Positions 10,928 to 44,048 are shown, counted from the first letter of the stretch. The stretch is DNA of 64,000 nucleotides from Candidatus Omnitrophota bacterium (GCA_020632555.1 JACKFI010000002.1:2621-66620); one strand, 5' to 3'. Translations and numbers: made by a program. The notes: generated from the sequence alone by a model not told the origin.

Positions 10928-11001
10928 ATAATATGTAACCTCCCGCTAGGGGTGTCAAAAGGGGGATTTGGGTGTGCCAAAAATGTGCCAGATTTGTGCC
11001 A
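10928..11001 (-). promoter_or_regulatory. Promoter-like module A plus three phased TGTGCCA heptamers
   Basis: The minus strand reads TGGCACA x3 (plus-strand starts 10973, 10984, 10995; 11-bp phase), then AAATCCCCCTTTTGACACCCCT, with -35 TTGACA (10953..10958), a 17-nt spacer and CATATT (10930..10935). It faces the SIR2 gene. Confidence 0.45.
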
Positions 11002-11069
11002 ACTTTGGACCCCTTCCTATTGGACAGTTAGAGGATTACAATGTTGACAAGCCAATAAGGAGACTTGTC

Positions 11070-11420
11070 ATGAAATACCGCAAATTTATTAACGAATTCA
11101 AAAAGCATTTAGTAGAACAGCTGCTTAGTGGCGTCAAAGTTTCAGAGATATGCCGGCAATATGATGTTGCAAAACAGGTTCTGGCTCGCTGGCAAAGAAA
11201 ATACGAACAAGGGGAACTCGACAACGCCCCCAAGAACGGTCAATTAGCTACTGAGATCAAAATCAAAGAACTTGAAAGTTTAGTTGGCCGGCTAACGCTG
11301 GACAATGAACTTTTAAAAAAAGCCGTGAAGCTAGCCTGCTCACAACAAACGATAAGCGCAAATTCATCTTCGAAAACAAAAATTTATTCGGGAGCATTGC
11401 CAGGGGGTGTCGCATGTTAA
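11070..11420 (+). CDS. IS3-family transposase OrfA (HTH)
   Basis: MKYRKFINEFKKHLVEQLLSG.KVSEICRQYDV....LARWQRKY, followed by a leucine-zipper-like region. AAGGAG lies upstream of the ATG at 11070. Confidence 0.85.
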   Translation: MKYRKFINEFKKHLVEQLLSGVKVSEICRQYDVAKQVLARWQRKYEQGELDNAPKNGQLATEIKIKELESLVGRLTLDNELLKKAVKLACSQQTISANSSSKTKIYSGALPGGVAC

Positions 11421-12250
11421 ATATCCCCCACAGCACGTATTATCATAAGACTCAAAAAGAACAAAATCTTATAAAGCAAGTCCAAGAAGCAGCCTTAATA
11501 GACAAGATTGAAGAAATCATCTACGAATTTTCTGGTTATGGAACGCGCAGGGTTACCAAAGAACTCAAACGCCAGAATTGGGACGTTAATCGTAAAAGAA
11601 TTCAGCGCATAATGCGCGAGAATTCTTTGCTGCACGTCGTTAAACGTAAATTCGTCAAGACCACTGATTCTGATCATCCGTATAAACGTTATCCCAATTT
11701 AATTAAAGGATTCAGAACCACTAGACCCAATCAATTATGGGTATCCGACATAACCTATATCCGTATTTTGACAGGGTTTGTATATTTAGCCGTGATTTTG
11801 GACGCCTTCTCGCGCAAAGTGATTGGATATGCCTTGTCCAGACGTCTTTTGGATGAGTTAACCGTTGCCGCATTAAATATGGCTATCTCACAACTTCATC
11901 CAGCAGAAGGCTGTATTCATCACTCAGATCAAGGTGGACAATATGCCTCAGATAATTATATTAACAAGCTGACAGAGTATAAATTCAAGATCAGCATGTC
12001 CAGGCAAGGCAACCCGTATGACAATGCCATGGCTGAAAGCTTTATGAAAACTTTAAAATACGAGGAGGTTCGACTTTGGGATTATAAAAATATGGACGAT
12101 GTATTAAGAAGGGTTCCATATTTTATTGCCGAAGTCTATAATAAAAAACGTTTGCACTCATCGCTGGGCTATGTGCCACCCGATGAATATGAGTCGTCGT
12201 ATGTTGAGAAAGATCAAACTATATTAACCAGTCAACTTGTCACTTCTTAA
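11414..12250 (+). CDS. IS3-family transposase OrfB (DDE/rve integrase core)
   Basis: 278 aa in the -1 frame relative to OrfA. Motifs: WVSDITYI, HSDQGGQYAS, and NPYDNAMAESF...K.E, the DD(35)E region. Confidence 0.88.
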   Translation: MLNIPHSTYYHKTQKEQNLIKQVQEAALIDKIEEIIYEFSGYGTRRVTKELKRQNWDVNRKRIQRIMRENSLLHVVKRKFVKTTDSDHPYKRYPNLIKGFRTTRPNQLWVSDITYIRILTGFVYLAVILDAFSRKVIGYALSRRLLDELTVAALNMAISQLHPAEGCIHHSDQGGQYASDNYINKLTEYKFKISMSRQGNPYDNAMAESFMKTLKYEEVRLWDYKNMDDVLRRVPYFIAEVYNKKRLHSSLGYVPPDEYESSYVEKDQTILTSQLVTS

Positions 12251-12346
12251 CTGTCTCACTGAAAGGGTCCACTCCACTCCTACACAACCTCTTCAAATAA
12301 CTAAACTTATAAAACCCTAAAAATTTCTGTGCCGGATTTGTGCCAA

Positions 12347-14629
12347 TTATTTTAATTCTATTCTTCTCAAACGCAAAGAATTTCCAACCACTGAAACCGA
12401 ACTAAACGCCATCGCCGCGCCAGCAATGATTGGGCTTAACAAAATTCCGAAGAATGGATACAAAAAACCAGCAGCAACCGGCACACCTAAAATATTGTAG
12501 ATAAAAGCAAAAAACAAATTTTGACGGATATTGCTCATAACCGCCCGGCTTAAACGCAAGGCTTTCACAATACCGTTAAGATCGCCTTTGACCAAAGTAA
12601 TTCCTGCACTTTCAATGGCCACATCCGTGCCTGTTCCCATCGCCACACCAACTTCGGCTTGGGCCAAAGCAGGAGCATCGTTAATCCCATCTCCCGCCAT
12701 CATGACTCGCGCCCCCTGCGCTTTGAATTGCTTAACAATCTCTTGCTTACTTTTGGGTTCCAATTCAGCACGGACATCATCGATCCCTAATTCCTTTGCG
12801 ATCACCTGAGCAGTTTTATGATTGTCTCCGGTCAGCATAATTACTTTGATTCCCATATCGTGAAGCTCCCGGATCGCCTGTGAAGAAGTTTTTTTAATTG
12901 GGTCAGAAATTCCAAGAATACCCACGACTTTTTGTTCAACCGCAACCCATACAACCGTCTGTGCTTGATCTTGCAACTGCGCAGATTTTTTCTTGATGTC
13001 CTCGGGAAGAATTATTTTCTCCTCCTCAAGAAACTTCTGCTTACCCAAGACAATCTTTTGTCCGTTGATTTTCCCCTTAATGCCACCACCAGTGATCGAT
13101 TCAAAATCTTTTACGGATTCAAACTTTGCATTCTTTTCTTTGGCGTAGTCGATTACAGCACGTGCCAAAGGATGCTCACTGCTTTGTTCGATAGAAGCGG
13201 CGAAGCCAAGAAGCGTTTGTTCATTCCATCCCTGACTTGGAACGCAGGTGGTCACTTTCGGCTTTCCTTCAGTCAGTGTGCCTGTTTTGTCCGTCAAAAC
13301 ATATGTAATTTTCTCCGACTTCTCAATAGCCTCGGCATTTTTAATCAAAATTCCCATCTGGGCCCCGCGCCCAACGCCAACCATAATTGACATGGGTGTT
13401 GCCAATCCTAACGCACACGGACAAGCGATGATGAGAACGGCAATAGCATTGACAATGGCATAAGCCAATCTTGGTTCAGGCCCCCAATTCGCCCAAATAA
13501 TAAAGGTAATAACGGAAATCAAAACCACAATCGGAACAAAATAGCCGGATATTGTATCGGCTAATTTTTGAATAGGCGCACGGCTGCGCTGTGCTTCCGC
13601 GACCATGTGGACAATCTGGGAAAGTAAAGTTTCTGCTCCCACTTTTTCCGTTCGCATCACAAAGGTTCCCGTTTGATTGACGGTAGCGCCGATCACCTTG
13701 TCACCGGTCTTTTTTTCTACCGGCATAGGCTCGCCGGAAATCATCGACTCATCGACACTGCTTTTCCCTTCAATAATAATTCCGTCGAGAGGAACTTTTT
13801 CGCCTGGACGAACGCGCAACAAATCTCCTTTTTGAACAGAATCAATAGGCACTTCTTCTTCATTTCCATTTTGAATTCTGTGAGCATTCTTCGCCGCCAA
13901 ACCCAAAAGTGCTTTGATCGCTTGGCCGGTTTGGCTCCGCGCCTTGGCTTCCAATAATTGCCCCAAAATAATCAAGACAGTAATTACCGCCGCAGCCTCA
14001 AAATAAAGATCGATTTTTCCCATTTTTTTGAGCGATTCCGAAAAAATCTGCGGGAATAACGTTGCAATAGTGCTATAAGCATAGGCCGCACCGACACCCA
14101 AAGCAATTAGCGTAAACATATTAAGGCTACGATTGACCAAAGACTTCCAGCCTTTGACAAAAAACATTCCTCCCGCCCATAACACAACCGGGGTTGCCAG
14201 AATGAATTGTATCCAGGGAATAAAACGGCGAGGAATAATCGATTCTACATTAAAAGCGGGAATCATTTCTCCGAGCACGAGTAACACTAGAGGAACTGTA
14301 AGCCACAGTCCAATCCAAAATTTTTGTGATAAAGAATGAATTTCTTTCTGATCTTCATTCTCTTCGCCGTTTGGGTTCAGCGGCTCCAAATGCATTCCGC
14401 ATTTCGGACAATCTCCAGGATGATCTTGCCTGATCTCTGGATGCATCGGGCAGGTATAGATCGTTTTTCCATCCGCGCTCGTTTTTACTGATGCAGTTTT
14501 CTTTGATTTCTGATCAAGGAAGGTTTTTTTGCAATGTTCACTACAAAAATAAATGGGAAGGCCACCAAAATCTAATTTGATGGCCTTTCCCTCTTGAACT
14601 TCCATTTCGCAAATCGGATCAATAGCCAT
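12347..14629 (-). CDS. copA: Copper/silver-translocating P1B-type ATPase
   Basis: 760 aa. Motifs: CPC in [27 protein letters not shown]-terminal YHS/TRASH (DPICEMEV...FCSEHC) and YTCPMHPEI...CPKCGM metal-binding modules. Confidence 0.92.
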
Positions 14630-14638
14630 GGATTTCCC

Positions 14639-15103
14639 TTATTTATTTTCCGGATGATGGCTTTCGTGTTCAGCTTTTTCATCTTGAGCTGACTCTTTCA
14701 ACTCTTCGGCTTTTGTATCATCTGATGGCTTCATCTTTCCCATCATCGGACACATGCTTTTCATATTTTCCATCATCTTTTGCATACCTTCCATGTCCAT
14801 CTTGAGTTCAACTTCCTTGACGACATTCAAATCTTTGTCGTATTTGGTAAGTTTATTTGCTGTAACAACAATAATTCCACCATCATTGGTTGAGACAACT
14901 TGTTTTTGCATCATGGCCTGCATCATACCCATGCCCATCATCATTCCGCCCTTGTCCATCATACCACCCTTCATCATCCCTTCCCCCATCATGCCGCCTT
15001 TCATCCCTTTATCCATCATGTCGCCCTTCATACCCTCAGCATAGACCAAGCTGACGCTTGCGAATAAAAATACAAACATTATGCCCCAGACATTCTTTTT
15101 CAT
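14639..15103 (-). CDS. Secreted methionine-rich protein, a putative Cu(I)/Ag(I) binder
   Basis: Signal peptide, then MKGDMMDKGMKGGMMGEGMMKGGMMDKGGMMMGMGMM repeats, further M-rich stretches and a C-terminal HESHH. Confidence 0.6.
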   Translation of the reverse strand: MKKNVWGIMFVFLFASVSLVYAEGMKGDMMDKGMKGGMMGEGMMKGGMMDKGGMMMGMGMMQAMMQKQVVSTNDGGIIVVTANKLTKYDKDLNVVKEVELKMDMEGMQKMMENMKSMCPMMGKMKPSDDTKAEELKESAQDEKAEHESHHPENK

Positions 15104-15132
15104 TTCATTTCTTCCTTTTTAAACAGTTATTA

Positions 15133-15291
15133 TTATTTTGTCCCCATATATTTCATTGGTTCTTTTTCAAACTTTTGCTTACACGAGTCGCTACAAAAAT
15201 AAAATGACTTGCCCATGTGACTCGCCGATCCTTTGGCTTTTTCTTTATCAATCTCCATCCCGCAAACCGGATCTTTAACTTTTTCTGCCAT
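15133..15291 (-). CDS. YHS/TRASH-domain small protein, 52 aa (below the ORF-track cutoff)
   Basis: Hand translation gives MAEKVKDPVCGMEIDKEKAKGSASHMGKSFYFCSDSCKQKFEKEPMKYMGTK. DPVCGM...YFCS..C...F is the YHS signature. Confidence 0.7.
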   Translation of the reverse strand: MAEKVKDPVCGMEIDKEKAKGSASHMGKSFYFCSDSCKQKFEKEPMKYMGTK

Positions 15292-15318
15292 TCCAACTTC
15301 CTTTCTTTAATAAACGGT

Positions 15319-15630
15319 TCAATGACAACATGACCCGTGCTTATTATCTCCCTTAGTGTTTAAAAGAATTGGTAAATTATAAATACTAGCCAGCGTGGCT
15401 CCTCCCAGCCAACCTAAAATAAATATTTGAACTAATCCATAAATAACTTCCAAAACTGATGTTTCGGTTTTTAAAATCGCTGTTACATCAATTCCATGCA
15501 ACAGAGTATTAAAAAACGCGATTGCTTGTTCACGGCTAAGCGCCATAAAGACGATAATACATCCCAACCGAAAAACAACCAAGGTCAAACCGCAAGCCAG
15601 TCCCATTTTTTTAACATTAATGGCACCCAT
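15319..15630 (-). CDS. Small integral membrane protein with a C-terminal HGSCCH
   Basis: Start set at MGAINVKK, with GGAGG upstream. Three hydrophobic segments; ends ...KHGSCCH. Confidence 0.5.
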   Translation of the reverse strand: MGAINVKKMGLACGLTLVVFRLGCIIVFMALSREQAIAFFNTLLHGIDVTAILKTETSVLEVIYGLVQIFILGWLGGATLASIYNLPILLNTKGDNKHGSCCH

Positions 15631-15844
15631 GATGTTCCTCCTTTTTATCCCCTTTATCCTCTTTATCTTGATGATCATCATGTTTATGATGGCCGCTGCC
15701 CATCATCATAAAATGGCAAGCGAACATCATGACAATAAAGAAAAATATTGAATTATTTCCTTTTAAACCAACTCCCGGCGCTATAAAAATCAACAACAAC
15801 GGCAATAAACAACAAAGCATCATCCACCAGCTATGATTTCTCAT
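15617..15844 (-). CDS. DUF2933-like small membrane protein with a His-rich tail
   Basis: MRNHSWWMMLCCLLPLLLIF... is followed by HHKHDDHQDKEDKGDKKEEHHGCH. The start overlaps the upstream stop (ATGA). Confidence 0.5.
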   Translation of the reverse strand: MRNHSWWMMLCCLLPLLLIFIAPGVGLKGNNSIFFFIVMMFACHFMMMGSGHHKHDDHQDKEDKGDKKEEHHGCH

Positions 15845-16497
15845 TTCAAGGCTCCTTTCCAAAACTTAGGAATAAATGCAGGAACATTTTCCCTGTATTC
15901 TTCGTATTGTTTTCCAAATATTGTTTGGACATCTTTTTCTTCCCGCATAGCTAAACGATAATATGCAAACATCAAGATCGGCCACATGATTAGCGTCGTT
16001 AAAGAAGGCCATTGCATCAGGAATCCAATTGTGATCAAAAATAAACCACTGTACTGCGGATGACGCACATAAGCATAAACACCTTCAGTAACCAGCTTCT
16101 GACCTTTTGCCGCATAAATCAGCATCCATCCTTTGTAAATAATGTAAAATCCAAAAAATACAATTCCGTTGCTAATGATGTGTAAAATTGTCATCGCCAA
16201 TGCGGAGTCGGCCAGACCAAAAAGAACCAATAACAAATGGCCATGATTATGGGTGAATGGATTTAAAACAGGGTACGATTGCCCCATCCATGAAGACAAT
16301 AAATAAATCGTTAAAGGAAAACCATACATTTCTGTAAATAAAGCCACAATGAATCCGATAAACGCCCCCATCGATCGCCATTCGATATTTTTCTTAGGGA
16401 CAATGTAGCTTGCTACAAAAAATAAAATCAATAACGAATTAAAAACTACTGTTGTCCACATCCCATAGGCATATAATCCAGCTGCTTCTCCGTGCAT
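15841..16497 (-). CDS. Isoprenylcysteine carboxyl methyltransferase (ICMT/PEMT)-family membrane protein
   Basis: Polytopic membrane protein carrying GVYAYVRHPQYSGLFLITIGFLMQW, the ICMT-family signature. Start set at MHGEAAG, with AAGGAG upstream. Confidence 0.65.
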   Translation of the reverse strand: MHGEAAGLYAYGMWTTVVFNSLLILFFVASYIVPKKNIEWRSMGAFIGFIVALFTEMYGFPLTIYLLSSWMGQSYPVLNPFTHNHGHLLLVLFGLADSALAMTILHIISNGIVFFGFYIIYKGWMLIYAAKGQKLVTEGVYAYVRHPQYSGLFLITIGFLMQWPSLTTLIMWPILMFAYYRLAMREEKDVQTIFGKQYEEYRENVPAFIPKFWKGALK

Positions 16498-16554
16498 TTT
16501 AGGCTCCTTTCTTTTTAGAACCGCTTGATTACATGTTTTGGTCAATTCCCACTT

Positions 16555-16911
16555 TTATTGCCATTCCTGACTTACCTCATTCATAATATGAAACACTGCA
16601 GCACAGGTAGGACGGCAGAACTTGTGAACCACACCATTCATCGCCATTGTCGTCTCAAAGTTGTCGTTTTTGTGAATTTTCTTACGGCACCCCTTACAGA
16701 TATAAATTTCACCGGCCACTTCTTCCAAGGCATAGTGACGAGGCTCCTTTATAAATTTCTTCAAACACCCGACGGAGCAAAAAACATGTTCTTTCTGTTC
16801 ATAAACATAAAATAAGTCTTTGGTTAAAGCCTCTTGAACGGAAATATCCTTTCCACAGACCGGATCAATTCTTAGAATTTGCACATCAGTATCTCTGCAA
16901 TCAAGTGACAT
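16555..16911 (-). CDS. Protein with tandem YHS/TRASH-type Cys motifs
   Basis: DPVCGKDI...VFCSVGCLKKF and CKGCRKKI...HKFCRPTCAAVF. Confidence 0.6.
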   Translation of the reverse strand: MSLDCRDTDVQILRIDPVCGKDISVQEALTKDLFYVYEQKEHVFCSVGCLKKFIKEPRHYALEEVAGEIYICKGCRKKIHKNDNFETTMAMNGVVHKFCRPTCAAVFHIMNEVSQEWQ

Positions 16912-16928
16912 CGTTCCCTCCCTTAGGC

Positions 16929-19900
16929 CTAATGTTTCTGTAATTCAGGAATTGGCAGTTTACTGATATCAACTGTGCCCTTCTTCATCTCGTAATTCCA
17001 CTTCCAAATATAATAAATAACTGGATAAACAAGAAGTTCTAAAATAAAACTGCTAAATATTCCACCAATCATTGGAGCAGCGATGCGCTTCATCACATCC
17101 GCACCCGCGCCCATAGACCACATAATCGGAATCAAGCCCATAAACATTGCTGTCACAGTCATCAGTTTCGGACGAATACGCTTGACCGCACCATAAACAA
17201 TCGCTTCTTCAAGATCTTCTTTAGTTCGCATTTTCCCCTGACGAACGGCATCATAATAAGCTATGTCTAGGAACAAAAGCATAAAAACACCTGTTTCAGC
17301 ATCAAGTCCCATGAGCGCAATCATTCCCACCCATACCGCAATTGACATGTTGTAGTCAAGCATCCACAAAAACCAGACTGCTCCAACCAGTGAAAACGGT
17401 ACCGCTAGCATCACAATACCTGCTTTGATAGGCGAACGGGTATTCATGTAAAGAAGCATAAAGATCAAAAATATCGTGATCGGAAGAACAATGCGTAATC
17501 TCTCCTGTACGCGCAACATATTCTCAAACTGCCCGCTCCACTGAAGAGCATAACCGGTCGGAACTTTCAATTCCTTATCAACAACCTTCTTGGCCTCTTC
17601 GACAAAACTTCCGATATCACGACCAGCAATATCAACATACACATATCCCGTAAGCATACCGTTCTCATCACGGATCATAGCGGGCCCGGTTGTCAACTTA
17701 ATATCGGCCAACTGTTCAATAGGAACCTGAGCGCCAGACATGGTCGGAACCAATACCCGTCTTAACTTCGGTAAATCATCCCGCAATTCACGGGCATAGC
17801 GGACATTCACCGTATAACGCTCACGGCCTTCGACCGTTGTGGTCACAGGTTCGCCACCAATCGCTGACATGATGATCTCTTCAACCTCTTTAATAGTCAG
17901 CCCGTAACGTGCAATCTGCTCACGCTTGATATCAAAATCAATAAAATACCCGCCGGTCACGCGCTCGGCGTAAACACTACGCGCGCCTTTGATATTCTTC
18001 ACAATACTCTCAACCTGAATCCCGATTTTCTCGATCTCTCCAAGATCAGCACCATAAATTTTTATGCCAATCGGTGTGCGAATACCGGTTGAAAGCATGT
18101 CGATTCTGGCCTTGATCGGCATTGTCCAAGCATTGGAAACACCGGGAAACTTCATTTTGCTGTCAAGATCAGTAATCACATCTTCCCATGAATAGCGATC
18201 CGGCCAGATCGGACGGAAAGGTGCTTGCAAGAAACTCGGAAATTTTGAATACCAGCGCGGCTTCTGACGCCACTCATTCTCAGGCTTTAAAATAACCGTC
18301 GTCTCCATCATGGAAAAAGGTGCCGGATCAGTTGATGTCTCGGCACGACCCGCTTTACCAAAGACACGCTCAACTTCGGGGACAGTCTTGATAATCTTAT
18401 CCATTTGCTGCAATAACTTTTCTGCCTCGGTCACGGAAAGACCCGGTAAAGTCGTCGGCATATAAAGAATCGTGCCTTCGTTTAAGGGGGGCATGAACTC
18501 CGATCCCAAACGCATAAAGACTGGGATCGTCGACAAAACTAGCACACCAGCGGCTACAAGCGTCCATGTACGGAACTTAAGGACAAAGCGGCAAACCGGT
18601 TCGTAATATTTAAACAACACTTTGCTAATGGGATGATTCTCTTCTGAGTAATACTTGCCGACAAAAATACTATTTAAAACATTTGATGCCCAGCGCGGGC
18701 GAAAATTGATCGGGTCAATGCGCGTAAAGAACATCCGCATGGCCGGATTAAGAGTAAGTGCCAAAACAGCCGCAATCGCCATGGCAAAGTTCTTGCTAAA
18801 AGCCAGCGGCTTAAACAACCGACCTTCCTGATCAAGAAGCGTAAAGACCGGCAGGAACGCCACGGCGATGACCAGCAACGAGAAAAAAACGGACGGCCCC
18901 ACCTGTTTTAAGGCACGGAGTAACACGTCATGGTAATCCTCTTTTCGTCCCCCTGCATCCCACAGCTGGAGCTTCTTATATGCATTCTCGACCTCGATAA
19001 TAGCCCCATCGACAAGAACGCCGATCGATATGGCGATCCCTGCCAAAGACATGATATTTGACGTTAATCCCATCATAGCCATTGGAATAAAACTTAATAA
19101 AACAGCGATGGGGATGGTCACAATAGGAACGCTGGCTGAAGGGAAATGCCACAGAAATAAAATAATGACCAACGCCACGATGATCATTTCCTCAATCAGT
19201 TGATGCTTAAGGGTCTCAATGGCACGATGGATCAAGTCCGAACGATCATACGTCGTCACCAGCTCCACCCCGGGAGGCAATGATGACTTGATTTCCTTCA
19301 TCTTCTCCTTGACCCGACTGATGACATTCAGAGCATTTTCCCCTGAGCGCATAAGAACAATCCCGCCGACAGTATCACCTTCGCCGTCAAGATCCGCTAT
19401 GCCACGCCGTATGTCCGGGCCAAGAGAAACAGACGCAACATTCTTAACAAAAATCGGTGCGCCATTAGCATCATTCTCCAAAACAATGTTCTCGATATCT
19501 TTAACCGATTTGATATACCCGCGACCGCGTACCATATACTCGGTTCCCGAGAACTCAACCAGACGGCCACCGACGTCGTTATTGCTATTGCGGATGGCCT
19601 CGGTCACTTTCATCAATGGGATGTTGTACGCCAATAATGCATTAGGCTTAACATTGACCTGATACTGCTTCTGAAAGCCACCCACTGAAGCAACCTCAGC
19701 AACGCCCGGAACAGACTGCAACCAATAACGTAAATACCAATCCTGAAAAGAGCGCAGTTGCGCCAGATCATTCTTACCGGACTTATCGACCAATGCATAC
19801 TGATAGACCCAGCCAACGGATGTCGCATCCGGCCCAATCTCCGTCTTAACCCCTTCCGGAAGTTTCGGCAGTATTTTGCTTAAATACTCCAGCGTCCGGC

Positions 19901-24430: not shown

Positions 24431-24532
24431 TTCAAATATCTCCATTTTGTTAAACAATTCGTTAATTAAATTGTCTCCACTATTTTATTCATGCCTATTC
24501 CTGCTTACGAAGTTCTTAAGACTTTCCAAAGA

Positions 24533-35882: not shown

Positions 35883-35894
35883 CTTAGTAATTTC

Positions 35895-35987
35895 TTAACA
35901 ACCACCCGGACAAGAACAAGCATAGGCTTGCCCAGCAATTAAGGCAACGCCTGCAATTAACAATGCTGCGAATAATAATGTTTTCAT
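35895..35987 (-). CDS. 30-codon mini-ORF encoding a signal-peptide-like segment plus CSCPGGC (below the ORF-track cutoff)
   Basis: Hand translation gives MKTLLFAALLIAGVALIAGQAYACSCPGGC. An SD (AAAGGAGGAAAAC) lies immediately upstream. The ATG is 13 nt after the stop of the SmtB/ArsR gene. Confidence 0.5.
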   Translation of the reverse strand: MKTLLFAALLIAGVALIAGQAYACSCPGGC

Positions 35988-36000
35988 GTTTTCCTCCTTT

Positions 36001-36375
36001 CTAAGTAGTAAATTTCTTGTTTTGAATACCAAGCAAACATTTGCCTTCTTCTCTTATCGACAAACGTTTTTTAAATCTCCCAAGGTCTGCTTGATAAATT
36101 TTTTCTTCAGCTTCCTGAATCACTTTACAAATTGATACACAAAAAGGTGAACAATCCGGACAAGCCGAATAATAAACCCAGCGGCCCTCTTTTCTGGATT
36201 TTATGAGTCCAGCGGCCATAAGAACATCGATATGTTTTGTAAGATTGTACTGCGGGGTTAGGATTGAATCGACGAGCTCACACCCACATGCTTCTTTTCC
36301 AGTCTTCAATAGAAGTCTTAAAATGCGGAGGCGAGTTGGTTCACCTAAGGCTTTAAATATTGCAACATTATCCAT
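36001..36375 (-). CDS. ArsR/SmtB-family metal-sensing repressor
   Basis: 124 aa. FKALGEPTRLRILRLL...ACGCELVD is the winged-HTH with an alpha-3 Cys site. There is an additional C-terminal Cys cluster, CPDCSPFCVSIC. Confidence 0.85.
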   Translation of the reverse strand: MDNVAIFKALGEPTRLRILRLLLKTGKEACGCELVDSILTPQYNLTKHIDVLMAAGLIKSRKEGRWVYYSACPDCSPFCVSICKVIQEAEEKIYQADLGRFKKRLSIREEGKCLLGIQNKKFTT

Positions 36376-36390
36376 AAATTTTCTGCCTTC

Positions 36391-36437
36391 ATACTTGCGT
36401 TATAATGCAAGTATAGCATCTTAAAATCTACTGTCAA
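36391..36437 (-). promoter_or_regulatory. Sigma70-like promoter with a perfect palindromic operator for the SmtB/ArsR operon
   Basis: The minus strand reads TTGACA (36432..36437), a 16-nt spacer, then TATACT (36410..36415). The palindrome ATACTTGC-N8-GCAAGTAT (36391..36414) overlaps the -10 and the predicted TSS. Confidence 0.6.
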
Positions 36438-36446
36438 TAATTCGTT

Positions 36447-36566
36447 TCTCCATTTTGCACCGGGGTTGGTCAAGACCACTGTCCCTGCTTCAACCTATGG
36501 TTGAGGGAGAGTGGTCTTGGACGAATTGGAACGCGAAGCGTTTCAAAACCCCAAACAAAATGGAGA
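36447..36566. other. 120-nt element predicted to fold as a three-way junction; function unknown
   Basis: Outer stem 36447..36457 with 36556..36566, plus GGGGTT/AACCCC (36462..67 with 36547..52). Long hairpin 36471..36519: 15 bp with one mismatch, plus an inner 6-bp stem and a TAT loop. Short hairpin 36528..36544 with a GAA loop. Confidence 0.5.
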
Positions 36567-36792
36567 GTTACGAATCCTAAAAATTACAAACGCACTACAA
36601 AAAGTAACAAAATTGTAATGAATTTGTAATCTAAACATTGGGGGAGTTTTCTGACCTTCATATTATGAGAGAACAAGGTTCAAATTTTATACATTGCAAT
36701 TAAATAATTTACACTAACCCATCAAAACGATGTGCCAAATCTGTGTCATGTTAGAGTTGTTAGCAAAGCTACGTCAGAACCAACACAGGATA

Positions 36793-37227
36793 TCAATCGA
36801 CTTTTTGAAGGCTTAGCCAACCTTCAATTTTTCTCCTAATCTCCTCACGAACGGCTCTGGTCTTGGCAATTTTTTCTTCCCAAGTCCCTTCAAACTTTGA
36901 CGGATCGGTAAATCCCCAATGAAGTCTCTTGGCAATCCCGGGAAATATTGGGCAACGTTCTGCGCTCGTTTCATCGCAGACCGTAATCACATAACTGTAT
37001 AATTTACCCTGTTTAAGAAGATCCATGACAGCTTGGGTCTTCTTTCCGGAAATATCAATCCCCTCCTCTTTCAACACTTCGACCACAACCGGATTTAACT
37101 TGCCCGGTTCAATGCCAGCGCTTTCGACCTCAAAACGATCCCCAGCCAACTTTCGCAATAGCTCTTCGGCCATTTGGCTTCTGGCAGAGTTGTGAATACA
37201 CACAAATAATACTTTGTCTTTTGACAT
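36793..37227 (-). CDS. arsC: Arsenate reductase, LMW-PTP (thioredoxin-coupled) type
   Basis: 144 aa. [16 protein letters not shown] is the P-loop CX5R, with downstream Cys residues ([10 protein letters not shown]). Confidence 0.88.
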
Positions 37228-37300
37228 TTTGACCCTCTCCTTTTACAGTTTATACCGCGCTAAAAATAAGGGGAGTAACTTATGATAACATTGCTTACCC

Positions 37301-37858
37301 CTACTTGATTGCTGAACACCAACTATCAATTTTTTCCTTTATGGCGTCACGCATGACTCTGGTTTGCTGCAATCTCTCTTCTTTACTGCCAACAAATGCT
37401 GATGGATCAGCGAAATTCCATCTGATGCGTTCGCATTCGCCGGAGAAAGCGGGACATTGTTCAGCGCTTGCTTCATCACAAACAGTAATGACAAAATCAA
37501 AAGATATGTCTATTTTGACAAGATCAAAAACGTTTTGTGTCTTTTTATTAGATATATCAATCCCTACCTCTTGCATCACTTCAACCGCCAAAGGGTTTAA
37601 TAACCCGGGTTCTAGTCCTGCACTTTGTGCATAAAAGGAATCTCCATGCAGATAATTTAACAAGGCTTCGGCTATTTGACTACGTGCTGAATTGTGGACG
37701 CACACAAATAGAACCCTCTTTTTTATTTTGCCACCAAAAAATGAATACACCTTTCTCCAAAAACCCGGCCTCTTTGCCGGTAAATGGATGAGATCTTTCG
37801 TGGCGAAGAAATTCTTCCAGAAGCTATCTAACTCATTATCCATAGCACTTCCTATCAA
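37301..37858 (-). CDS. arsC: Second LMW-PTP-type arsenate reductase, with an N-terminal extension of about 45 aa
   Basis: 185 aa. VLFVCVHNSARSQIAE and CDEASAEQCP. The N-terminal extension has no recognisable motif. Confidence 0.8.
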   Translation of the reverse strand: MIGSAMDNELDSFWKNFFATKDLIHLPAKRPGFWRKVYSFFGGKIKKRVLFVCVHNSARSQIAEALLNYLHGDSFYAQSAGLEPGLLNPLAVEVMQEVGIDISNKKTQNVFDLVKIDISFDFVITVCDEASAEQCPAFSGECERIRWNFADPSAFVGSKEERLQQTRVMRDAIKEKIDSWCSAIK

Positions 37859-37984
37859 ATCTCAACAATTGAAGTCCAGAAACTTTTCTCTTCAAACAGT
37901 ACTTATTCTAAATTCTTTGTTTTTTCAAAATTCTCCCAAAACTTCTTACTTTTCTCTTCTTCCGTTTCCATAATCACTAAACAC

Positions 37985-39073
37985 TCAGGAGCAACAAGAT
38001 TTCTCAATTTCAGCCTTTTTTTGAAAAAATCGTGCAACATGAACCAATAACAACATGACCGGCACTTCAATCAATGGCCCGATGACTGTCGCAAATGCTT
38101 GCAAAGAATTGATCCCAAAGATCGCTACCGCGACCGCGATCGCCAGCTCAAAATCATTACTCGCCGCTGTAAATGACACCGCTGTTGCTTCAGCATGATT
38201 TGACTGTAATTTTCTTGAAAACCAATACGCTACAAACCACATGACAATAAAATAAATCGTCAAAGGCACTGCGATCCGAACGACGTCCAATGGCAAGCGA
38301 ACGATATACTCACCTTTGAGCGAAAACATGACAAAGATCGTGAAAAGAAGTGCGACCAGCGTGATCGGGCTAATACGTGGAATGTAAACTTTGTCGAACC
38401 ACTCCTGCCCCTTCATTTTGATCAACGCAAAACGACTGACCACACCCGCAAAGAACGGAATTCCGAGATAGATCAAAACAGTCTTGGCCGACTCCAGCAT
38501 CGACACCTGAATATTCACCCCCTTAACCAAGCCAAAGAAATTTAGCGCAAATGTAATAAACACATAAATATAGACTGCATAAAGAAGCACTTGAAAAACA
38601 GCATTAAAAGCCACCAGGCCGGCAGCCAGCTCTCTGTCTCCGTCAGATAGATCATTCCAAACAATCACCATAGCAATACATCGCGCAAGGCCGACAAGAA
38701 TAACGCCGATCATATACTCTGGATAATTGTGCAAGAAAATCACAGCCAAAATAAACATCACAATTGGCCCAACGACCCAGTTTTGCAGTAGTGACAATCC
38801 TAAAAGTTTTTTGTTTTGAAAAACTTTCCCGATCTCTTCATATTTCACTTTTGCCAATGGCGGGTACATCATCAGGATCAATCCAATCGCAATGGGTATA
38901 TTCGTCGTGCCCGCCTGAAATTTATTCCAGAATACAGCGATGCTAGGGATAAAATATCCAACGCCCACTCCAATCGCCATAGCTAAAAGAATCCATAATG
39001 TCAAATAACGATCAAGAAACGACAACTGTTTAGTTGGCGGCCATGGATTAAGTGCCTCGACATTAATTGCCAT
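37985..39073 (-). CDS. acr3: ACR3-family arsenite efflux permease
   Basis: Start set at [20 protein letters not shown] and 10 TM segments are typical of Acr3/ArsB(ACR3). Confidence 0.88.
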
Positions 39074-39077
39074 ATTT

Positions 39078-40838
39078 CTATTTCCTTCCATTAATTGAAT
39101 CTTCCGAAATATTGACCATCCAAGGCAAAACAACCGTTCGTTTAGAAAGCTTATTTGCCGTTTCGTTGATAAACGTCAACTCATGAAAACCCTTGGCACA
39201 TATCAAAGGGTCTTTCGATCCGGAAACAGCAAAATTCCGGTTAATGACCCATCCAAATGGATTAATACCGGCTCTTTGTAAATCAACTTGCAATGCCTCG
39301 GCTTCATGCGTCGGAGTTGCTTCTGCCAAAGAAATGATTACAAGCTTTGTAAACTTGGGATCGCGAATGCGAGGCAATAATTCCTTAACATCATCTGACA
39401 TATTATCCGTCGATTTAGCAACCTGCCTGTGATAAGACTCGGTCGCGTCCAATAGCAGAAGTGTGTGTCCCGTCGGCGCTGTGTCGAGAACAATAAATTG
39501 ATTTTCACCTTTTGCAACGGTTTGCGCAAAAGCCTTAAACACCGCAATCTCTTCAATACAGGGAGAACGCATTTCTTCTTCAAGAAGTTCCATATCTTCT
39601 CTCGATAATTTCTCCCTGTTTTCCTTCAAGACACTTTCAACATATTTCCGTGTTTCGATCTTAGGGTCAATCTTATCAATAGAAAGATTGGCAATTTCTG
39701 TCTTAATGACTTTAGCAATATGCGCGGCGGGGTCTGTTGTCGATAATAAGACCTTGTGGCCGCGACTAGCAAGCTCGACTGTTATCATAGCCGCAACCGT
39801 CGTCTTACCCACTCCGCCTTTTCCCATAGTCATAATGACCCCGGAACCATCGTTCTCGAGGCTCGACATAAATTCTGACCATTTACAGGTATTCTTTAGC
39901 GCTTCGGAAAGCTCCTCTTTCAATTTGGCTATAACTTTTAACTCGGGAGCATGAGTTTTATCATCCAGCATATTTCGTAAAGCCTCAATTCCGACTACTC
40001 CCTGCGACCTAAAATTTATAATTGTCTTATCGAGATGCTTTATTTCATCAGGCACATTTTGCATTGCTAACGCCGATGTTAAAGCAAAGGCTTTTGCGAT
40101 TTCATCCTCTGAGGAAGTTTTAAAAACTCCATTAATCACAAGCCTCTGATTATTTAATCCCAATAAACCAAGCTCCCCACTTGCCCTCGCCGCCTCATCC
40201 AGACTCATTTTCTCCGGTCTTGATACTAAGACAAGAGTCGTCTGCTTGGGATTCTTAAGCTCATCTACAACCGCTTGATAAAGATGCTGCTGTTCTTTTA
40301 GGCCGGATAAAGGGCCCAGACAAGAGCTGCTAGCTTTATTGGATGCAATAAAATCACTCCATGCCGACGGAAGATTCAAAAGCCGAAGCGTGTGTCCGGT
40401 AGGCGCCGTATCTAAAATAAGGTGGTCATATTCGATACTAGCTTCTTTAAGACCTATGAATTTTGAGAACTCATTAAACCCAGCAATCTCGACGGTACAA
40501 GCCCCCGAAAGCTGTTCCTCCATCTGCTTGATTGATTCATCGGGTAAAACTCCTTTGTATGGATCAATCATGCGCCTTCGATATTCCTCAGCCGCCTTAA
40601 CGGGATTAATGTTCATGGCATGAAGGTTGGCAACATTAGCAACTGCAGTTGGCGTCGATGACAACTTTGTCTCTAAAACTTCATCAAGATTTGACGCGGG
40701 ATCTGTGCTGATCAGTAAAACTTTTTTGCCTGAATCGGCAAGCCCAACGGCAACGGCACACGATACGGAGGTCTTTCCAACTCCGCCTTTTCCGGTAAAG
40801 AATAGGAAACGGGTTGCTTCCTCCATTAAAGTTTTCAT
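39078..40838 (-). CDS. arsA: Arsenite-stimulated ATPase ArsA (two homologous halves)
   Basis: Two P-loops ([11 protein letters not shown]; [11 protein letters not shown]) and two DTAPTGHTL signal-transduction motifs. The start overlaps the arsD stop (TGATG). Confidence 0.92.
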
Positions 40839-41194
40839 CAGCAACACCCGTCTCCCCCGCAGCAACTGCTCTTCTTGTTAGGCTGCGCTTTTTGATCGAG
40901 CTTGAATGTTTTCAGAATTTCTGCCGCGGATGGAATTTCCCCTGACCACTTGAGCTCATCATCAACAAAAATAAACGGCAAAGCGCTTTGTCCTTTTTCA
41001 GCCAGGAGCTTCTTAACATTAGGGTTTGCAACAAAAGCTTGCGGCTCCTGAGACATATTAAAACGCCGAACAACTACACCAGAGCTCGAGAGCGTCTTTA
41101 AAACGCTGGCGAACTCAACCAGCTTTTTATCAACCGTTGTTCCGCATACTCCGCTTGAACAACACATTGGCGGATCATAGATTTCAATTTTCAT
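40838..41194 (-). CDS. arsD: Arsenic metallochaperone/repressor ArsD
   Basis: MKIEIYDPPMCCSSGVCG is the canonical ArsD N-terminus. The C-terminus has a CCGGDGCC tail. Confidence 0.9.
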   Translation of the reverse strand: MKIEIYDPPMCCSSGVCGTTVDKKLVEFASVLKTLSSSGVVVRRFNMSQEPQAFVANPNVKKLLAEKGQSALPFIFVDDELKWSGEIPSAAEILKTFKLDQKAQPNKKSSCCGGDGCC

Positions 41195-41210
41195 ATCTGA
41201 CTCCTAATTT

Positions 41211-41999
41211 TTAAGGTTTCACCGCATGGACTTTGATGCTTGCAATTGAATTTTCTACCTCTTTTATTTTCGTATCGATAACCATCGCGTCAACAGGATA
41301 ACCGCTCTGGCTAACAACCCTAATATCCTTAAAACCTGCCTCTTCAATACAGTGAAGATAGGCATCTTTCATTTCAGCACCGGCAAGACATCCCACGTAA
41401 GCCTCAACCGAATTTTTGACAGCTTCCGGCAAGTTTTTTATCAGAACAAGATCCGAAACCATCAACCGACCTTTGGGCTTGAGAACCCGGAATGCTTCCC
41501 TAAATACCTTGTTCTTCTCTGGAGATAGATTAATCACGCAATTAGAAATGATCACATCAACAGAATTGTCTACTACTGGAATTGACTCTATTTCGCCATG
41601 CCGAAATTCGACATTGCTATAACCTCCCTTTCGAGCATTATTCTTCGCCCGGTCAATCATCTCCTGAGTCATATCAACTCCGATAACATGTCCAGTCTTA
41701 CCAACTTTCTTGGCCGCAAGAAATACATCAAATCCAGCGCCGCTTCCCAGATCGAGAACCACATCGCCCTCCTGTAAAGAGGCAATAGCAACCGGATTAC
41801 CGCAGCCAAGTCCCAAAATGGCACCATCAGGCACTGTGGAAATATCTTCCTCACTGTAGCCAACGGTTTTGCTGATATTATGAGCGGTAGAGGAAGGTAA
41901 ACAGCACCCGCCGGATGAACAACAAGAAATTCCCTGTTGGGCGACTTTAGCATAACCATCCCTAACCATCTTCCTAATATTTTTTGATTTGCCTTCCAT
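41211..41999 (-). CDS. arsM: Arsenite S-adenosylmethionine methyltransferase ArsM
   Basis: Start set at MEGKSKNIRKMVRDGYAKVA, with AAGGTG upstream. Cys pairs (CCSSGGCC), the SAM motif VLDLGSGAGFD, and NCVINLS. The longer track ORF (to 42092) runs into IS sequence. Confidence 0.88.
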   Translation of the reverse strand: MEGKSKNIRKMVRDGYAKVAQQGISCCSSGGCCLPSSTAHNISKTVGYSEEDISTVPDGAILGLGCGNPVAIASLQEGDVVLDLGSGAGFDVFLAAKKVGKTGHVIGVDMTQEMIDRAKNNARKGGYSNVEFRHGEIESIPVVDNSVDVIISNCVINLSPEKNKVFREAFRVLKPKGRLMVSDLVLIKNLPEAVKNSVEAYVGCLAGAEMKDAYLHCIEEAGFKDIRVVSQSGYPVDAMVIDTKIKEVENSIASIKVHAVKP

Positions 42000-42103
42000 A
42001 AATACACCTTGTATTATTTCACAACCTGGACCTTCCCCCCAAAAACTGTACCACTTGCAATTAGAGTTGGGTCGTGATAAAACCAACCGCAAGGAGGTAC
42101 AAG

Positions 42104-42370
42104 ATGAAAGGGAAGCGATTTTCAGCCGAGCAAATTATCAACGTTCTCAAAGAATCCGATGCCGGGGTAAAGCCTGCGGATCTGTGCCGCAAGTACGGCA
42201 TCAGCGAGGCCACGTATTATCACTGGAAGGCCAAGTACGGCAATATGACCGTCAGCGATGCCAGGCGGCTTAAAGAACTCGAGCAAGAAAACAGCCGCCT
42301 AAAGAAGCTGGTAGCTGATCAGGCTCTTGACATCCAGATGCTCAAAGAGGTCTGCTCAAAAAACTTCTAA
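42104..42370 (+). CDS. IS3-family transposase OrfA
   Basis: MKGKRFSAEQIINVLKE.DAG....LCRKYGISEATYYHWKAKYG, then a leucine zipper. AAGGAGG lies upstream. Confidence 0.88.
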   Translation: MKGKRFSAEQIINVLKESDAGVKPADLCRKYGISEATYYHWKAKYGNMTVSDARRLKELEQENSRLKKLVADQALDIQMLKEVCSKNF

Positions 42371-42390
42371 CGCCCGAAGCCAGGCGCAAA

Positions 42391-43221
42391 GTGGTCAGAC
42401 ATTTAATGGCTCTCTTCGGGCGGAGCCAGAGACGAATCTGTTCATTGATAGGCATTCAAAGATCGACGTTGCATTATCGACCCAAACTGAAAAATGATAA
42501 CCAGCTCCGTCAACGCCTGCGGGAATTGGCGCAGAAGCATCGTCGCAGGGGATGCCCGCATTTGCACCGCATCCTGCGTCGCGAAAAACTGGTCATCAAC
42601 CATAAACGCACCGAGCGTATTTACCTGGAGGAAAACCTGTCCATTAGACGGAAAAAGCGTAAGAAGACGGCTTCCCAGTTGCGCATTCAAATCCCTGATG
42701 CGGCGCGTCCCAATCAGCAATGGGCGATGGATTTTATGTCGGACGCGTTGTTTAACGGCCGTAAAATCCGGCTGTTGACCTTAATCGACGAATACACCCG
42801 TGAATGCCTAGCCATTGAAGTTGATACCTCGATCAACGGTGTCCGGGTGACCGGCATCTTAAGCCGAGTGGCTATGATGCGTGGTCTGCCGGAGATTATC
42901 AAAGTCGACAACGGGCCCGAGTTTATCGGCAAGGCTTTGGATGCCTGGGCGTATCAGCGGCAGATTCATCTTCAATTTTCCAGACCTGGTAAACCCGTTG
43001 ACAATAGATTCATCGAAAGTTTCAACGGCCGATTTCGGGAAGAATGTCTCAACGACAATTGGTTCATGAGTTTGCAGGATGCTCGGGATATCGTCGAAAC
43101 GTGGCGTCTGGATTACAACACGGCTAGGCCGCATGGCTCTTTGAATGATCTGACACCCGAAGAATTTGTTAACAAAGAACAGAAAAAACTCCAACTCAAC
43201 TTGGTACAGTCAATGGGGTAA
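42391..43221 (+). CDS. IS3-family transposase OrfB (DDE/rve core)
   Basis: In the -1 frame relative to OrfA. Motifs: WAMDFMSD, KVDNGPEF, GKPVDNRFIESFNGRFREECL. Confidence 0.88.
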   Translation: MVRHLMALFGRSQRRICSLIGIQRSTLHYRPKLKNDNQLRQRLRELAQKHRRRGCPHLHRILRREKLVINHKRTERIYLEENLSIRRKKRKKTASQLRIQIPDAARPNQQWAMDFMSDALFNGRKIRLLTLIDEYTRECLAIEVDTSINGVRVTGILSRVAMMRGLPEIIKVDNGPEFIGKALDAWAYQRQIHLQFSRPGKPVDNRFIESFNGRFREECLNDNWFMSLQDARDIVETWRLDYNTARPHGSLNDLTPEEFVNKEQKKLQLNLVQSMG

Positions 43222-43288
43222 GGTCCACCTAACCAAAGATCATCCCGCTGATCATCGCAATGATGATAACAAGACGTGAATAAAAGCA

Positions 43289-43627
43289 TTACTTACTACA
43301 TAACTTAGTTCGCTCAGCCTTTTTCAACCGCTCCAAATCTGCTTTAATAACTTTGTCATTTTTAAGAAATGACTTAACACTCTTAAGAATTACACCTGCC
43401 TTAGAGTTCTTTATTAAAAAATAATTAGTCCAAAACCCATCCTGCTCATCCGCAATCAATCCAGTCTCCTTTATCCGCTTTAAATGCCGCGAAATGCTTG
43501 GCTGAGTCACCTGCAATACAAAAGCAAGTTCACAGACGCACATCTTCCGCTGCAAGAGGAGATTCAAAATCCTCAATCGGTTCTTATCAGCAAATATTTT
43601 AAAAAGTTTTTCTGTTGTTGTTAGCAT
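43289..43627 (-). CDS. arsR: ArsR-family arsenic-responsive repressor
   Basis: 112 aa. FKIFADKNRLRILNLL...MCVCELAFVLQVTQPSISRHL carries the CVC As(III) site in the HTH. Confidence 0.88.
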   Translation of the reverse strand: MLTTTEKLFKIFADKNRLRILNLLLQRKMCVCELAFVLQVTQPSISRHLKRIKETGLIADEQDGFWTNYFLIKNSKAGVILKSVKSFLKNDKVIKADLERLKKAERTKLCSK

Positions 43628-43630
43628 ATC

Positions 43631-43679
43631 TATATAACCATTCTGTTATATACATTAACAGAGTCAGTCTAATTGTCAA
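43631..43679 (-). promoter_or_regulatory. Proximal ars promoter with a palindromic operator
   Basis: The minus strand reads TTGACA (43674..43679), a 16-nt spacer, then TAATGT (43652..43657). It is immediately followed by the perfect palindrome TATATAAC-N6-GTTATATA (43631..43652), ending 3 nt before the arsR ATG. Confidence 0.6.
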
Positions 43680-43721
43680 GTTTCAATTTCTCAAGATGCA
43701 TCGACAAATCTCTAGCCAAGA

Positions 43722-43774
43722 TATATAGAAGGACGGGGTAGGGGTGTCAAAGGGGGATTTCGGTTTTGGGGATC
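43722..43774 (-). promoter_or_regulatory. Promoter-like module B
   Basis: The minus strand reads GATCCCCAAAACCGAAATCCCCCTTTGACACCCCT, with -35 TTGACA (43745..43750), a 17-nt spacer and TATATA (43722..43727). It is about 85 percent identical to module C over roughly 55 nt. Confidence 0.5.
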
Positions 43775-43973
43775 AGGAATTCTTATCGGCACGAACCCCT
43801 CGTGTCTTAGAGTGCCCTTTAATCGCTCCACGCGTCCCCTTGTGGCAACAAAGTTGCAACTTCCCTCCTTTTCTTTTGGTGGGAACAGGCAAAAGATTCT
43901 AAAAAACCTCAAATTTTCGCTGGGGGGGTTTTCGAAAAAGATCCTATCACTGCATCAAAATTTCTATTGGGGA

Positions 43974-44048
43974 TATATAAAAGCCGGGGGCAGGGGTGTC
44001 TAAGGGGGGATTTCGGTTTTGGGGATCGCCGTGTCCAAAAAGTGTCCA
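43974..44048 (-). promoter_or_regulatory. Promoter-like module C plus a GTGTCCA heptamer pair
   Basis: The minus strand reads TGGACAC-TTTT-TGGACAC (44031..44048), then GATCCCCAAAACCGAAATCCCCCCTTAGACACCCCT, with TAGACA (43997..44002), a 17-nt spacer and TATATA (43974..43979). Confidence 0.45.

Follow-up and report, generated by a model that had tools for sequence, protein, structure and literature searches.

The stretch of DNA analysed here, 64,000 nucleotides from a Candidatus Omnitrophota bacterium (GCA_020632555.1 JACKFI010000002.1:2621-66620; the whole stretch is called the window), carries a mobile integrative island of 44 kb (~92-44169) inserted in a tRNA-Pro gene. Heptamers phased at 11 bp recur along the island, some of them next to a promoter-like module. 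Judged from sequence comparisons, the heptamers are likely to be arm-type binding sites of the island's P2-like tyrosine integrase, the module to be a component of the island end, and the internal copies to be remnants left at the seams between gene blocks. We give this reading as a whole a probability of roughly 0.65, and we infer from the same comparisons integrase binding at the arm sites, the accretion history and the promoter activity of the module. A first-pass annotation of the window had interpreted the repeats as an island-wide regulatory design, with one DNA-binding protein reading helically phased heptamers upstream of a shared promoter. A single island-encoded DNA-binding protein is almost certainly involved, but the likely candidate is the integrase rather than an unknown regulator.

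The ends of the island are defined by its target gene and by a core repeat. The tRNA-Pro(TGG) gene (18-91, minus strand; ARAGORN, Rfam tRNA 65.7 bits) owes its 5' half (53-91) to the island. This attL identity segment, the core region, is a direct repeat of the attR identity segment at 44170-44208 (repeat family D8), which D8 and local alignment identify as the displaced 5' half of the chromosomal tRNA-Pro; the repeat covers 39-40 nt and is 40/40 identical in the local alignment. The tRNA gene is separated by only 3 nt from the end of int, a gene read in the same direction (95-1186, minus strand) and coding for a 363-aa tyrosine integrase (PF00589, E=1e-36; Int_N; phrog_1 integrase, E=9e-85). 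An identical right end lies on another tRNA-Pro flank in metagenome contig L002, and the right end of a diverged relative, L094, lies on the 5' half of a tRNA-Pro(CGG) gene. Thus, the tRNA-Pro target, the core repeat at both ends, the abutting integrase gene and the varied tRNA-Pro contexts of L002 and L094 identify the region as a mobile integrative island. Its cargo comprises SIR2-HerA, two heavy-metal ATPases, Cus-like and Czc-like RND systems, an ECF sigma factor and an ars operon. A megablast search for plasmid relatives with positions 1-25000 gave no match, and protein look-ups with the ATPase, ArsC, IS3 OrfB, SIR2, ArsR and Int for empty-site or variant contexts returned the same island only; proteins identical to Int and ArsR are listed at NCBI from Candidatus Omnitrophica metagenome-assembled genomes (MAGs). 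Sequencing samples with the island include SRR12358675/6, SRR18360454 and SRR30303755.

The insertion also remodels the target gene (18-1186), swapping out the 5' half and the promoter of tRNA-Pro. Because int and the rebuilt tRNA gene are co-directional, 3 nt apart and have no good promoter between them, the rebuilt tRNA-Pro is probably processed from the int transcript. At the other end of the island, a 51-bp tandem duplication (44213-44314) lies directly upstream of the displaced 5' half. Both of its copies carry TTAACG-17-GATAAT and a CCCGC..GCGGG hairpin, and the segment is probably the native tRNA promoter region in duplicate.

Both arms of the island carry the 18-mer GTGTCCAAAAAGTGTCCA, in the same orientation and outside the core. 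The int-distal copy (44031-44048, plus strand), GTGTCCA-AAAA-GTGTCCA, stands where the first-pass annotation had reported a GTGTCCA pair and is conserved at 18/18 positions in L094. The int-proximal copy (166-183, plus strand) has the same sequence; it lies outside the span which that annotation covered and had been missed. It falls inside the 3' end of int, where it supplies the codons for VDTFWT and reads TGGACAC-TTTT-TGGACAC on the minus strand. The distance from arm to core is 74 nt on the attL side and 121 nt on the attR side. Two matches to the 18-mer in the window compare with 0.01 expected, and four phased heptamer pairs with 0.15 expected. Single heptamers are not enriched (13 vs 12.3 expected), and when exact 7-mers recurring at 11 bp were counted without bias, only eight loci emerged, with no excess of period 11 over periods 8-15; what departs from chance is therefore only that one heptamer family keeps reappearing in phased arrays. 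Short direct repeats placed on both arms and outside the core characterise the arm-type sites of heterobivalent tyrosine integrases, and we regard the GTGTCCA pairs as probable Int-binding sites of this kind. The DNA that follows the right-arm heptamers partly resembles the left arm (CCCAAAA..; AAATCC..TTTGACA), so one arm may be an old duplicate of the other. A 46-codon open reading frame (ORF) on the minus strand (43909-44049) begins with MDTFWT, the same peptide as in the integrase tail.

The arm pairs match those of phage P2. In the P2 genome record (GenBank AF063097), which attributes the arm sites to Yu and Haggard-Ljungquist, the Int-bound P' arm is annotated at 24470-24496 as cTGTGGACACTGTGTGGACACtc, equivalent to TGGACAC-N4-TGGACAC; it overlaps the last codons of int, and a second Int-bound pair, the P arm, lies across the core. 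The P2 arm consensus has been given as tgTGGaCa (PMC3448106). The island shares with P2 attP the identical heptamer TGGACAC, its direct duplication at 11-bp spacing, a pair to either side of the core with orientation unchanged, and an int-proximal pair within the last int codons. Placement on both arms, together with this identity of heptamer, spacing and position, argues that the motif is a P2-type arm site. The integrases belong to the same broad family, with 30% identity over 230 aa in a BLAST alignment (E=4e-28). Unlike P2, the carrier is not a phage but a 44-kb metal-resistance and defence island in an uncultured member of the Omnitrophota, and its target is the 5' half of tRNA-Pro. The arm-to-core distances also differ (87 and 36 in P2 vs 74 and 121 nt in the island), as does the heptamer spacer (TGTG in P2 vs TTTT in the island), and the island has no Cox homologue but codes instead for an HTH_17 and a ribbon-helix-helix (RHH) protein.

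The same 18-mer accompanies integrase genes elsewhere. It is present in 17 IMG/VR viral contigs, and in eight of these, all unrelated proviruses, it lies inside or at most 300 bp past the 3' end of an Int-like ORF. Two of the eight have it 78-83 bp from a tRNA-Met or tRNA-Ser gene, vs 75 bp in the window. Four provirus integrases read the 18-mer in another frame (GHFLDT) and in four other proviruses it is outside the ORF, which points to a constraint on the DNA and not on the protein. A protein search for close Int relatives in viral contigs gave one distant match only. The search for Int homologues retrieved 4,244 proteins at E<=1e-30; among the 120 closest (58-100% identity), 92 carry D[TS]xWT ~28 aa from the C-terminus. 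This motif (MDTFWT or MDTIWT) is the translation of the arm-site pair, and the MDTFWT peptide, which thousands of integrases have, is probably the imprint of a DNA site rather than a protein constraint.

If so, variant tails (METFWR, GTNWAH, FGTQLTH) would predict variant arm sites. Homologue P0328 has GTNWAH in the corresponding place, encoded by TGGGCACAAATTGGGCACA (L098 10993-11010), 72 bp before a tRNA-Pro(GGG) gene. Both heptamers are altered alike, to TGGGCAC, as expected of a repeated binding site that tracks its protein. No right end of a small L098 island was found within 10 kb. Across its right end L094 is homologous to the window throughout, at ~80% identity: the arm pair is identical at all 18 positions, the 121-nt arm-to-core spacer is 86% identical and the interior between units C and B of the promoter-like module (described below) is 69% identical. 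Thus, in these relatives the arm sites are conserved (L094) or co-vary as a set (TGGGCAC twice in L098).

Bridging of arm and core by Int is established for lambda and P2. In lambda, Int connects the arm sites P1, P2 and P'1-3 with the core, helped by IHF, Xis and Fis. As in lambda-type systems generally, the recombinase of the island is expected to have two DNA-binding specificities, with arm sites that flank the core and accessory sites between arm and core; the motif and the number of sites differ in the island. Candidate accessory sites are two copies, 20 bp apart, of the 17-nt direct repeat TTGGT(T)AAAAC(T/A)TGAT(G/A)A (44053-44089, plus strand), which lie between the right arm pair and the core, are largely conserved in L094 and could serve an Xis-like, IHF-like or bending protein. 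Candidate accessory proteins are encoded next to int. A 59-aa excisionase-type HTH_17 protein (1415-1594, minus strand; PF12728, E=1.4e-9; phrog_66 'excisionase and transcriptional regulator') is a candidate recombination directionality factor (RDF). A 48-aa NikA-like RHH protein (1188-1334, minus strand; PF21983, E=1.6e-8) is a possible recombination or mobilisation accessory factor. In the mechanism we propose, Int would contact the phased heptamers of both arms through its small N-terminal domain and the tRNA-Pro core through its C-terminal core-binding and catalytic domains, and the accessory proteins would bend the arms so that Int can bridge arm to core. attP, or attL plus attR, would thereby fold into a recombinogenic complex, and this folding would give integration or excision its direction.

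Directionality factors themselves can occupy repeats of this geometry. P2 Cox and 186 Apl bind helically phased direct-repeat arrays at attP and at early promoters. For Cox, the phased direct repeats bound at attP and promoters are marked in the GenBank annotation of P2. The island heptamers resemble such sites in being short direct repeats at ~10.5-11 bp phase, present at an att site and beside promoters. In contrast to RDF sites, which occupy a single arm and lie between its Int site and the core, the 18-mer of the island is on both arms, and it matches the Int site rather than the Cox box. The att arms of the island itself lack the TGTGCCA type, of which no copy lies within 900 bp of either core. 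An operator array for an RDF (Xis, Cox or Apl) was ruled out on these grounds, GTGTCCA being on both arms and TGTGCCA absent near the cores.

TGTGCCA heptamers occur inside the island, and we consider them most likely to be variant arm sites left at internal seams. Array A (10973-11001, plus strand) has three, at the reported starts 10973, 10984 and 10995, and reads TGGCACA-AATC-TGGCACA-TTTT-TGGCACA on the minus strand. The arm pairs of unit C, the left arm, L094 and L098 line up with it in register, and it is one step away from the L098 arm (TGGGCACAAATTGGGCACA is close to TGGCACAAATCTGGCACA in array A). A further pair, TGTGCCG-GATT-TGTGCCA (12328-12345, plus strand; repeat family D9), starts 1 nt past the stop codon of a P-type ATPase gene; it is identical to part of array A at 17 of 18 positions, and nearly the same 18-mer is found in the L094 seam unit. 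Two perfect heptamers had been read here, of which the one at 12339 is TGTGCCA but the one at 12328 is TGTGCCG. Between array A and this pair lies an IS3-family element (11006-12271, plus strand; orfA 10968-11420 as listed, orfB 11414-12250; Pfam HTH_Tnp_1 and rve) with the terminal inverted repeats TGGACCCCTTC and GAAAGGGTCCA, which occupies the same place in all public copies of the island that were found. It begins 4 nt after the third heptamer and the pair lies 56 nt past its far end, so the five heptamers never formed one contiguous array into which the element could have landed, as had been supposed.

The boundary between the ars and czc blocks holds a fossil unit (36706-36748, plus strand). 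Its heptamers, TGTGCCA-AATC-TGTGTCA at 36731-36748, had been noted before, and they are accompanied by a decayed copy of the module (~36706-36730), which makes this a fourth, decayed module-plus-heptamer unit. The unit was delimited by alignment to a homologous and intact unit at the ars/czc seam of L094 (12085-12160), which has TGGCACAAATCCGACACG, then AAATCCCCCGTTGACACCCCT, then GATATATC. Relative to it, the module in the window has suffered a 15-nt deletion and substitutions, and a different heptamer is degraded in each lineage. Module decay and lineage-specific heptamer loss favour reading the internal units as relics over reading them as selected sites, and the decay at 36731 in particular argues against an operator under selection. 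The TGTGCCA arrays could be the ends of related elements of sister arm specificity that were joined to, or exchanged into, the island. Accretion followed by deletion would then leave arrays at the seams between its mobility/defence, Cu/czc and ars blocks. As far as their description in PMC5812530 goes, the ICESt1-related elements and CIMEs of Streptococcus thermophilus arose by tandem accretion and deletion (Pavlovic 2004, Bellanger 2011). On that description they are likewise composites of related elements at one att site with end remnants at internal junctions; the island differs in that its junctions keep arm sites and the adjoining block and no recognisable core repeat.

Phased triple TGTGCCA arrays also occur in 43 viral contigs, vs ~0.05 expected for a pattern of 21 specified bases, and two of them lie 6-15 bp past the 3' end of an int gene. 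Some of the viral arrays form long tandem runs or clusters of mixed orientation. Nine contigs (L030, L033, L038, L053, L056, L059, L061, L065 and L068) have perfect tandem TGTGCCAATAC in up to 11 copies; these runs are flanked by inverted GC-rich repeats and are unrelated to integrase genes. Since some viral contigs have many TGTGCCA copies, in both orientations or in tandem, with an origin-like look, the arrays of the window could be replication-origin iterons (3+2 with a ~60-bp spacer) bound by the 835-aa primase-like P-loop protein that the island encodes (2243-4750), comparable to P4 ori/crr or to phage-inducible chromosomal islands. The direct orientation and helical phase of the arrays, on both sides of a moderately AT-rich spacer, would suit such a role. 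We nevertheless consider it a remote prospect. At least 6 kb separates the arrays from the primase-like gene, and the window and L094 both have a near-identical pair at the ars/czc seam, far from replication genes. By its position array A is a homologue of the unit C arm pair, and its motif is a single step removed from the arm sites that a sister integrase carries in the 3' end of its gene. Moreover, the AT content of the spacer is only moderate, and the island offers a better origin candidate than the TGTGCCA arrays in the pair ATGTCGGA-GCA-ATGTCGGA (2222-2240). This pair has an 11-bp phase, adjoins an AT-rich stretch and sits on the 3' side of the primase-like gene, 3 bp past its stop codon.

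The module that stands beside several of the heptamers has the core AAATCCCCC(C/T)TT(T/A)GACACCCCT. The minus strand has three copies of it, at 10948-10969, 43740-43761 (one base shorter) and 43992-44013, and 100 dinucleotide-preserving shuffles gave 0.00 expected matches, which bears out its reported threefold presence. The units around these cores are likewise on the minus strand and contain the hexamers first described. Unit A (10930-10969) has TTGACA (10958-10953)-17-CATATT (10935-10930). Unit B (43715-43774) has TTGACA-17-TATATA and an upstream block, GATCCCCAAAACCGAAATCCCCC, at 43752-43774; it lacks adjacent perfect heptamers. Unit C (43961-44027) has TAGACA-17-TATATA with a conserved -10 block and an upstream block at 44004-44027. 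Units B and C align over ~79 columns, and their reported similarity amounts to ~86% identity over the central 56 nt; A shares with them only the 26-27 nt of the module. Module and heptamers adjoin in units A and C, and in L094 at both the island end and the ars/czc seam. They would do so because the module was copied together with the arm. We suggest that a promoter-like block of ~60-90 bp, to which the 22-nt module contributes the -35 side, lies directly inside the int-distal arm and would fire into the island.

The module appears to be essentially confined to these islands. It has no match in the viral contigs and one in the 185,579 species genomes of GTDB, between unrelated genes of a Dehalococcoidaceae MAG; JGI metagenomes gave two, in unrelated high-GC contexts. 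By our estimate collections as large as these should yield a few chance matches to a pattern so long, and the GTDB and JGI matches are at that level. A host-wide or widespread motif was ruled out, the only matches being at chance level and none of them viral. Several other identities for the module or its surroundings were also rejected. A tRNA fragment or RNA element finds no support in Rfam, which has nothing at gathering threshold for such an element in the window and nothing at E<=1 in 43500-44450, and the module strands are G-rich or C-rich and free of hairpins. A G-quadruplex formed by the G-runs was set aside, A having three runs only. No small gene lies between C and B, where there are short non-ATG ORFs only, in agreement with the original remark that C has no obvious gene before B. 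The TTGACAC of the module, a 6/7 match to TGGACAC, could be taken for a third arm site. It shows no co-variation with the TGGCACA array of A and its distance to the pair is not phase-conserved (35 nt vs 43 nt in L094), so TTGACAC is better read as a -35 element.

The proposal that the three units are sigma70-type promoters holds in part. The hexamers are there and the -35 and -10 blocks are conserved in comparison with L094, but a sigma70 consensus scan accepts A alone (10/12 matches). In unit C the -35 side is ~90% identical to L094 (gap-corrected) and the -10 block 84%, while the spacer is at 39%; the conserved blocks are GATCCCC-AAAACCGAAATCCCCC-TTWGAC on the -35 side and ATATATCCCCAATAGA at -10. 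This pattern would be a promoter footprint. Unit B is weaker in this comparison, with TTGGGA in L094. Evidence against promoter function comes from B and C, where the -10 element TATATA lacks the final T and fails the strict sigma70 rule, from the absence of a gene between C and B, and from the loss of the module copy at 36731. On balance, an active promoter firing into the island has a little less than an even chance.

The same observations suit a rival account that keeps the heptamers as arm sites and takes the module for a functionless duplicate of arm-adjacent DNA whose likeness to a promoter is fortuitous. Its absence from species genomes, viral contigs and metagenomes save for chance-level matches would be expected of such DNA, as would the failing -10 elements of B and C, a unit C that faces no gene before B and a loss at 36731 with no visible consequence. 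The post-heptamer DNA partly common to the left arm, which may make the arms old duplicates, is compatible with it too. Two features are difficult to reconcile with this account: 21-22 nt are near-identical in all three units although A has nothing else in its flanks in common with B or C, and unit C keeps its -35 and -10 blocks against L094 while its spacer has diverged, the pattern of a constrained promoter. We consider it doubtful that the module is without function, and give no better prospects to the idea that it is a mere passenger of arm duplication; roles other than promoter or passenger take up the remaining probability.

A regulatory role would be more convincing if the module followed the genes downstream of it, and in relatives it does not. 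Loci of SIR2-HerA homologues at 81% and 67% protein identity have no module upstream, and we rejected the module as an intrinsic SIR2-HerA promoter for that reason. The arsR gene has a proximal promoter and operator of its own (43643-43679, minus strand), with TTGACA at 43679-43674 and the inverted repeat CTGTTAAT..TAACAG at 43643-43661. This region lies ~60 bp downstream of B and is conserved in L094 and in the module-less arsR locus L109. A 77% arsR homologue keeps only this proximal TTGACA and the CTGTTAAT..TAACAG operator, and the module was rejected as the arsR promoter as well. Its absence upstream of SIR2 and arsR homologues elsewhere indicates that the module belongs to the island end and not to the downstream genes. 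With these homologues lacking the module, an arsR promoter independent of it and the unit at 36731 decayed, the island-wide regulon of the first-pass annotation is not upheld.

In its general form, that model makes the heptamers operator arrays and the module a shared promoter, through which one island protein would co-regulate SIR2-HerA, ars and other blocks. The regulator could be an XRE protein (7307-7618), the RHH protein, the HTH_17 protein or Int itself, which would link cargo expression to the state of the island. The heptamers lie 4-28 nt upstream of the module in A, C and the internal unit of L094, the units stand at the upstream ends of three minus-strand gene blocks, and the -35 and -10 blocks are retained where the spacer has diverged. 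There are precedents as well. In KplE1, the attL arm and RDF sites overlap PintS, and IntS and TorI repress its transcription (PMC2951348); P2 Cox is bound to phased repeats at attP and at promoters. As in KplE1, sites for recombination proteins beside or over a promoter could allow Int and an RDF to regulate transcription in the island. The KplE1 promoter, unlike the block considered here, belongs to int and is found at the int-proximal end, whereas the island block is at the int-distal arm and points into the cargo.

An operator role is nonetheless unlikely in our view. In relatives the module is not linked to SIR2 or arsR, and arsR is served by a conserved promoter and operator of its own. 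Heptamers are missing beside B, and a module is missing beside the left-arm pair. The unit at 36731 is decayed in the window and one of its heptamers is decayed in L094. Moreover, heptamers and module stand at varying distances from each other (4, 18, 20 and 36 nt), without conservation of phase, and the two heptamer types would call for two proteins or for one tolerant protein. In a related scheme, which we rate as less likely still, arm arrays would have been co-opted as operators, with Int, alone or with an Xis-like protein, coupling the transcription of SIR2-HerA, ars and czc to the recombination state or to the level of Int.

Several observations weigh against the interpretation of the heptamers and internal units as integrase arm sites and their remnants. 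The putative arm-binding region of the protein is one of them: residues 1-60 of Int precede the Int_N/SAM-like match and BLAST gives no alignment to P2 Int there. The resemblance of the N-termini (GNWYIDYR..GRRRRE vs GRYEVDIR..GKRIRRK in P2) was recognised by eye only. A pattern, G-x-aromatic-x-[IV]-D-x-R...G[KR]R-x-RR, likewise drawn by eye and not BLAST-aligned, is shared by the island Int, P2 Int and viral integrases with the same arm sites. With 3/3 perfect heptamers and an intact module, array A could still be in use. No remnant of a core or tRNA was found beside the internal arrays, and the accretion history consequently needs later deletions. Integrases whose arms are exactly TGGCACA were not recovered, the nearest having TGGGCAC. 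That units recur ahead of operon blocks in two lineages would suit regulation too, and many of the viral TGTGCCA arrays are not beside an integrase gene and may serve other proteins. Finally, the IS3 element next to array A has no clear target duplication (flanks CTT and CTC), which is compatible with a possible IS-mediated deletion or rearrangement there.

The window contains other mobile DNA. A second IS3-family element (42074-43221; orfA 42074-42370, orfB 42391-43221) lies between arsR and arsM. In the metagenome copies L002 and L003, arsM directly follows arsR, so the element is polymorphic and parts arsR from its operon in the window. Outside the island, two inverted and 100% identical copies of a 1426-bp insertion sequence (46881-48306 and 61135-62560) encode a 427-aa transposase with weak rve_3/HTH matches. 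Each of their ends has two 23-nt subterminal direct repeats, AAATTAGGACATTTTTAATTTGG. The copies bracket 12.8 kb of housekeeping-looking genes (AsmA-like, Ham1, RNase PH, amidase and GAPDH) in an arrangement like that of a composite transposon.

A motif that was at first unrecognised thus finds a place among textbook P2/lambda-type arm sites. By its sequence it would be of a known kind, the P2-type integrase arm site, for which both the host and the type of carrier are new. There would be mechanistic novelty only if the arm sites control the adjacent promoter; if arm arrays had indeed been co-opted as operators, the TGTGCCA arrays would be kept sites, not fossils, and would tune cargo expression. 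The analysis sets exact boundaries and an attachment logic for a 44-kb metal-resistance and defence island in a phylum without cultured models. Furthermore, a heptamer pair in the 3' end of int that is repeated at the far end provides a marker with which islands may be delimited, and their assembly history read, in metagenomes.

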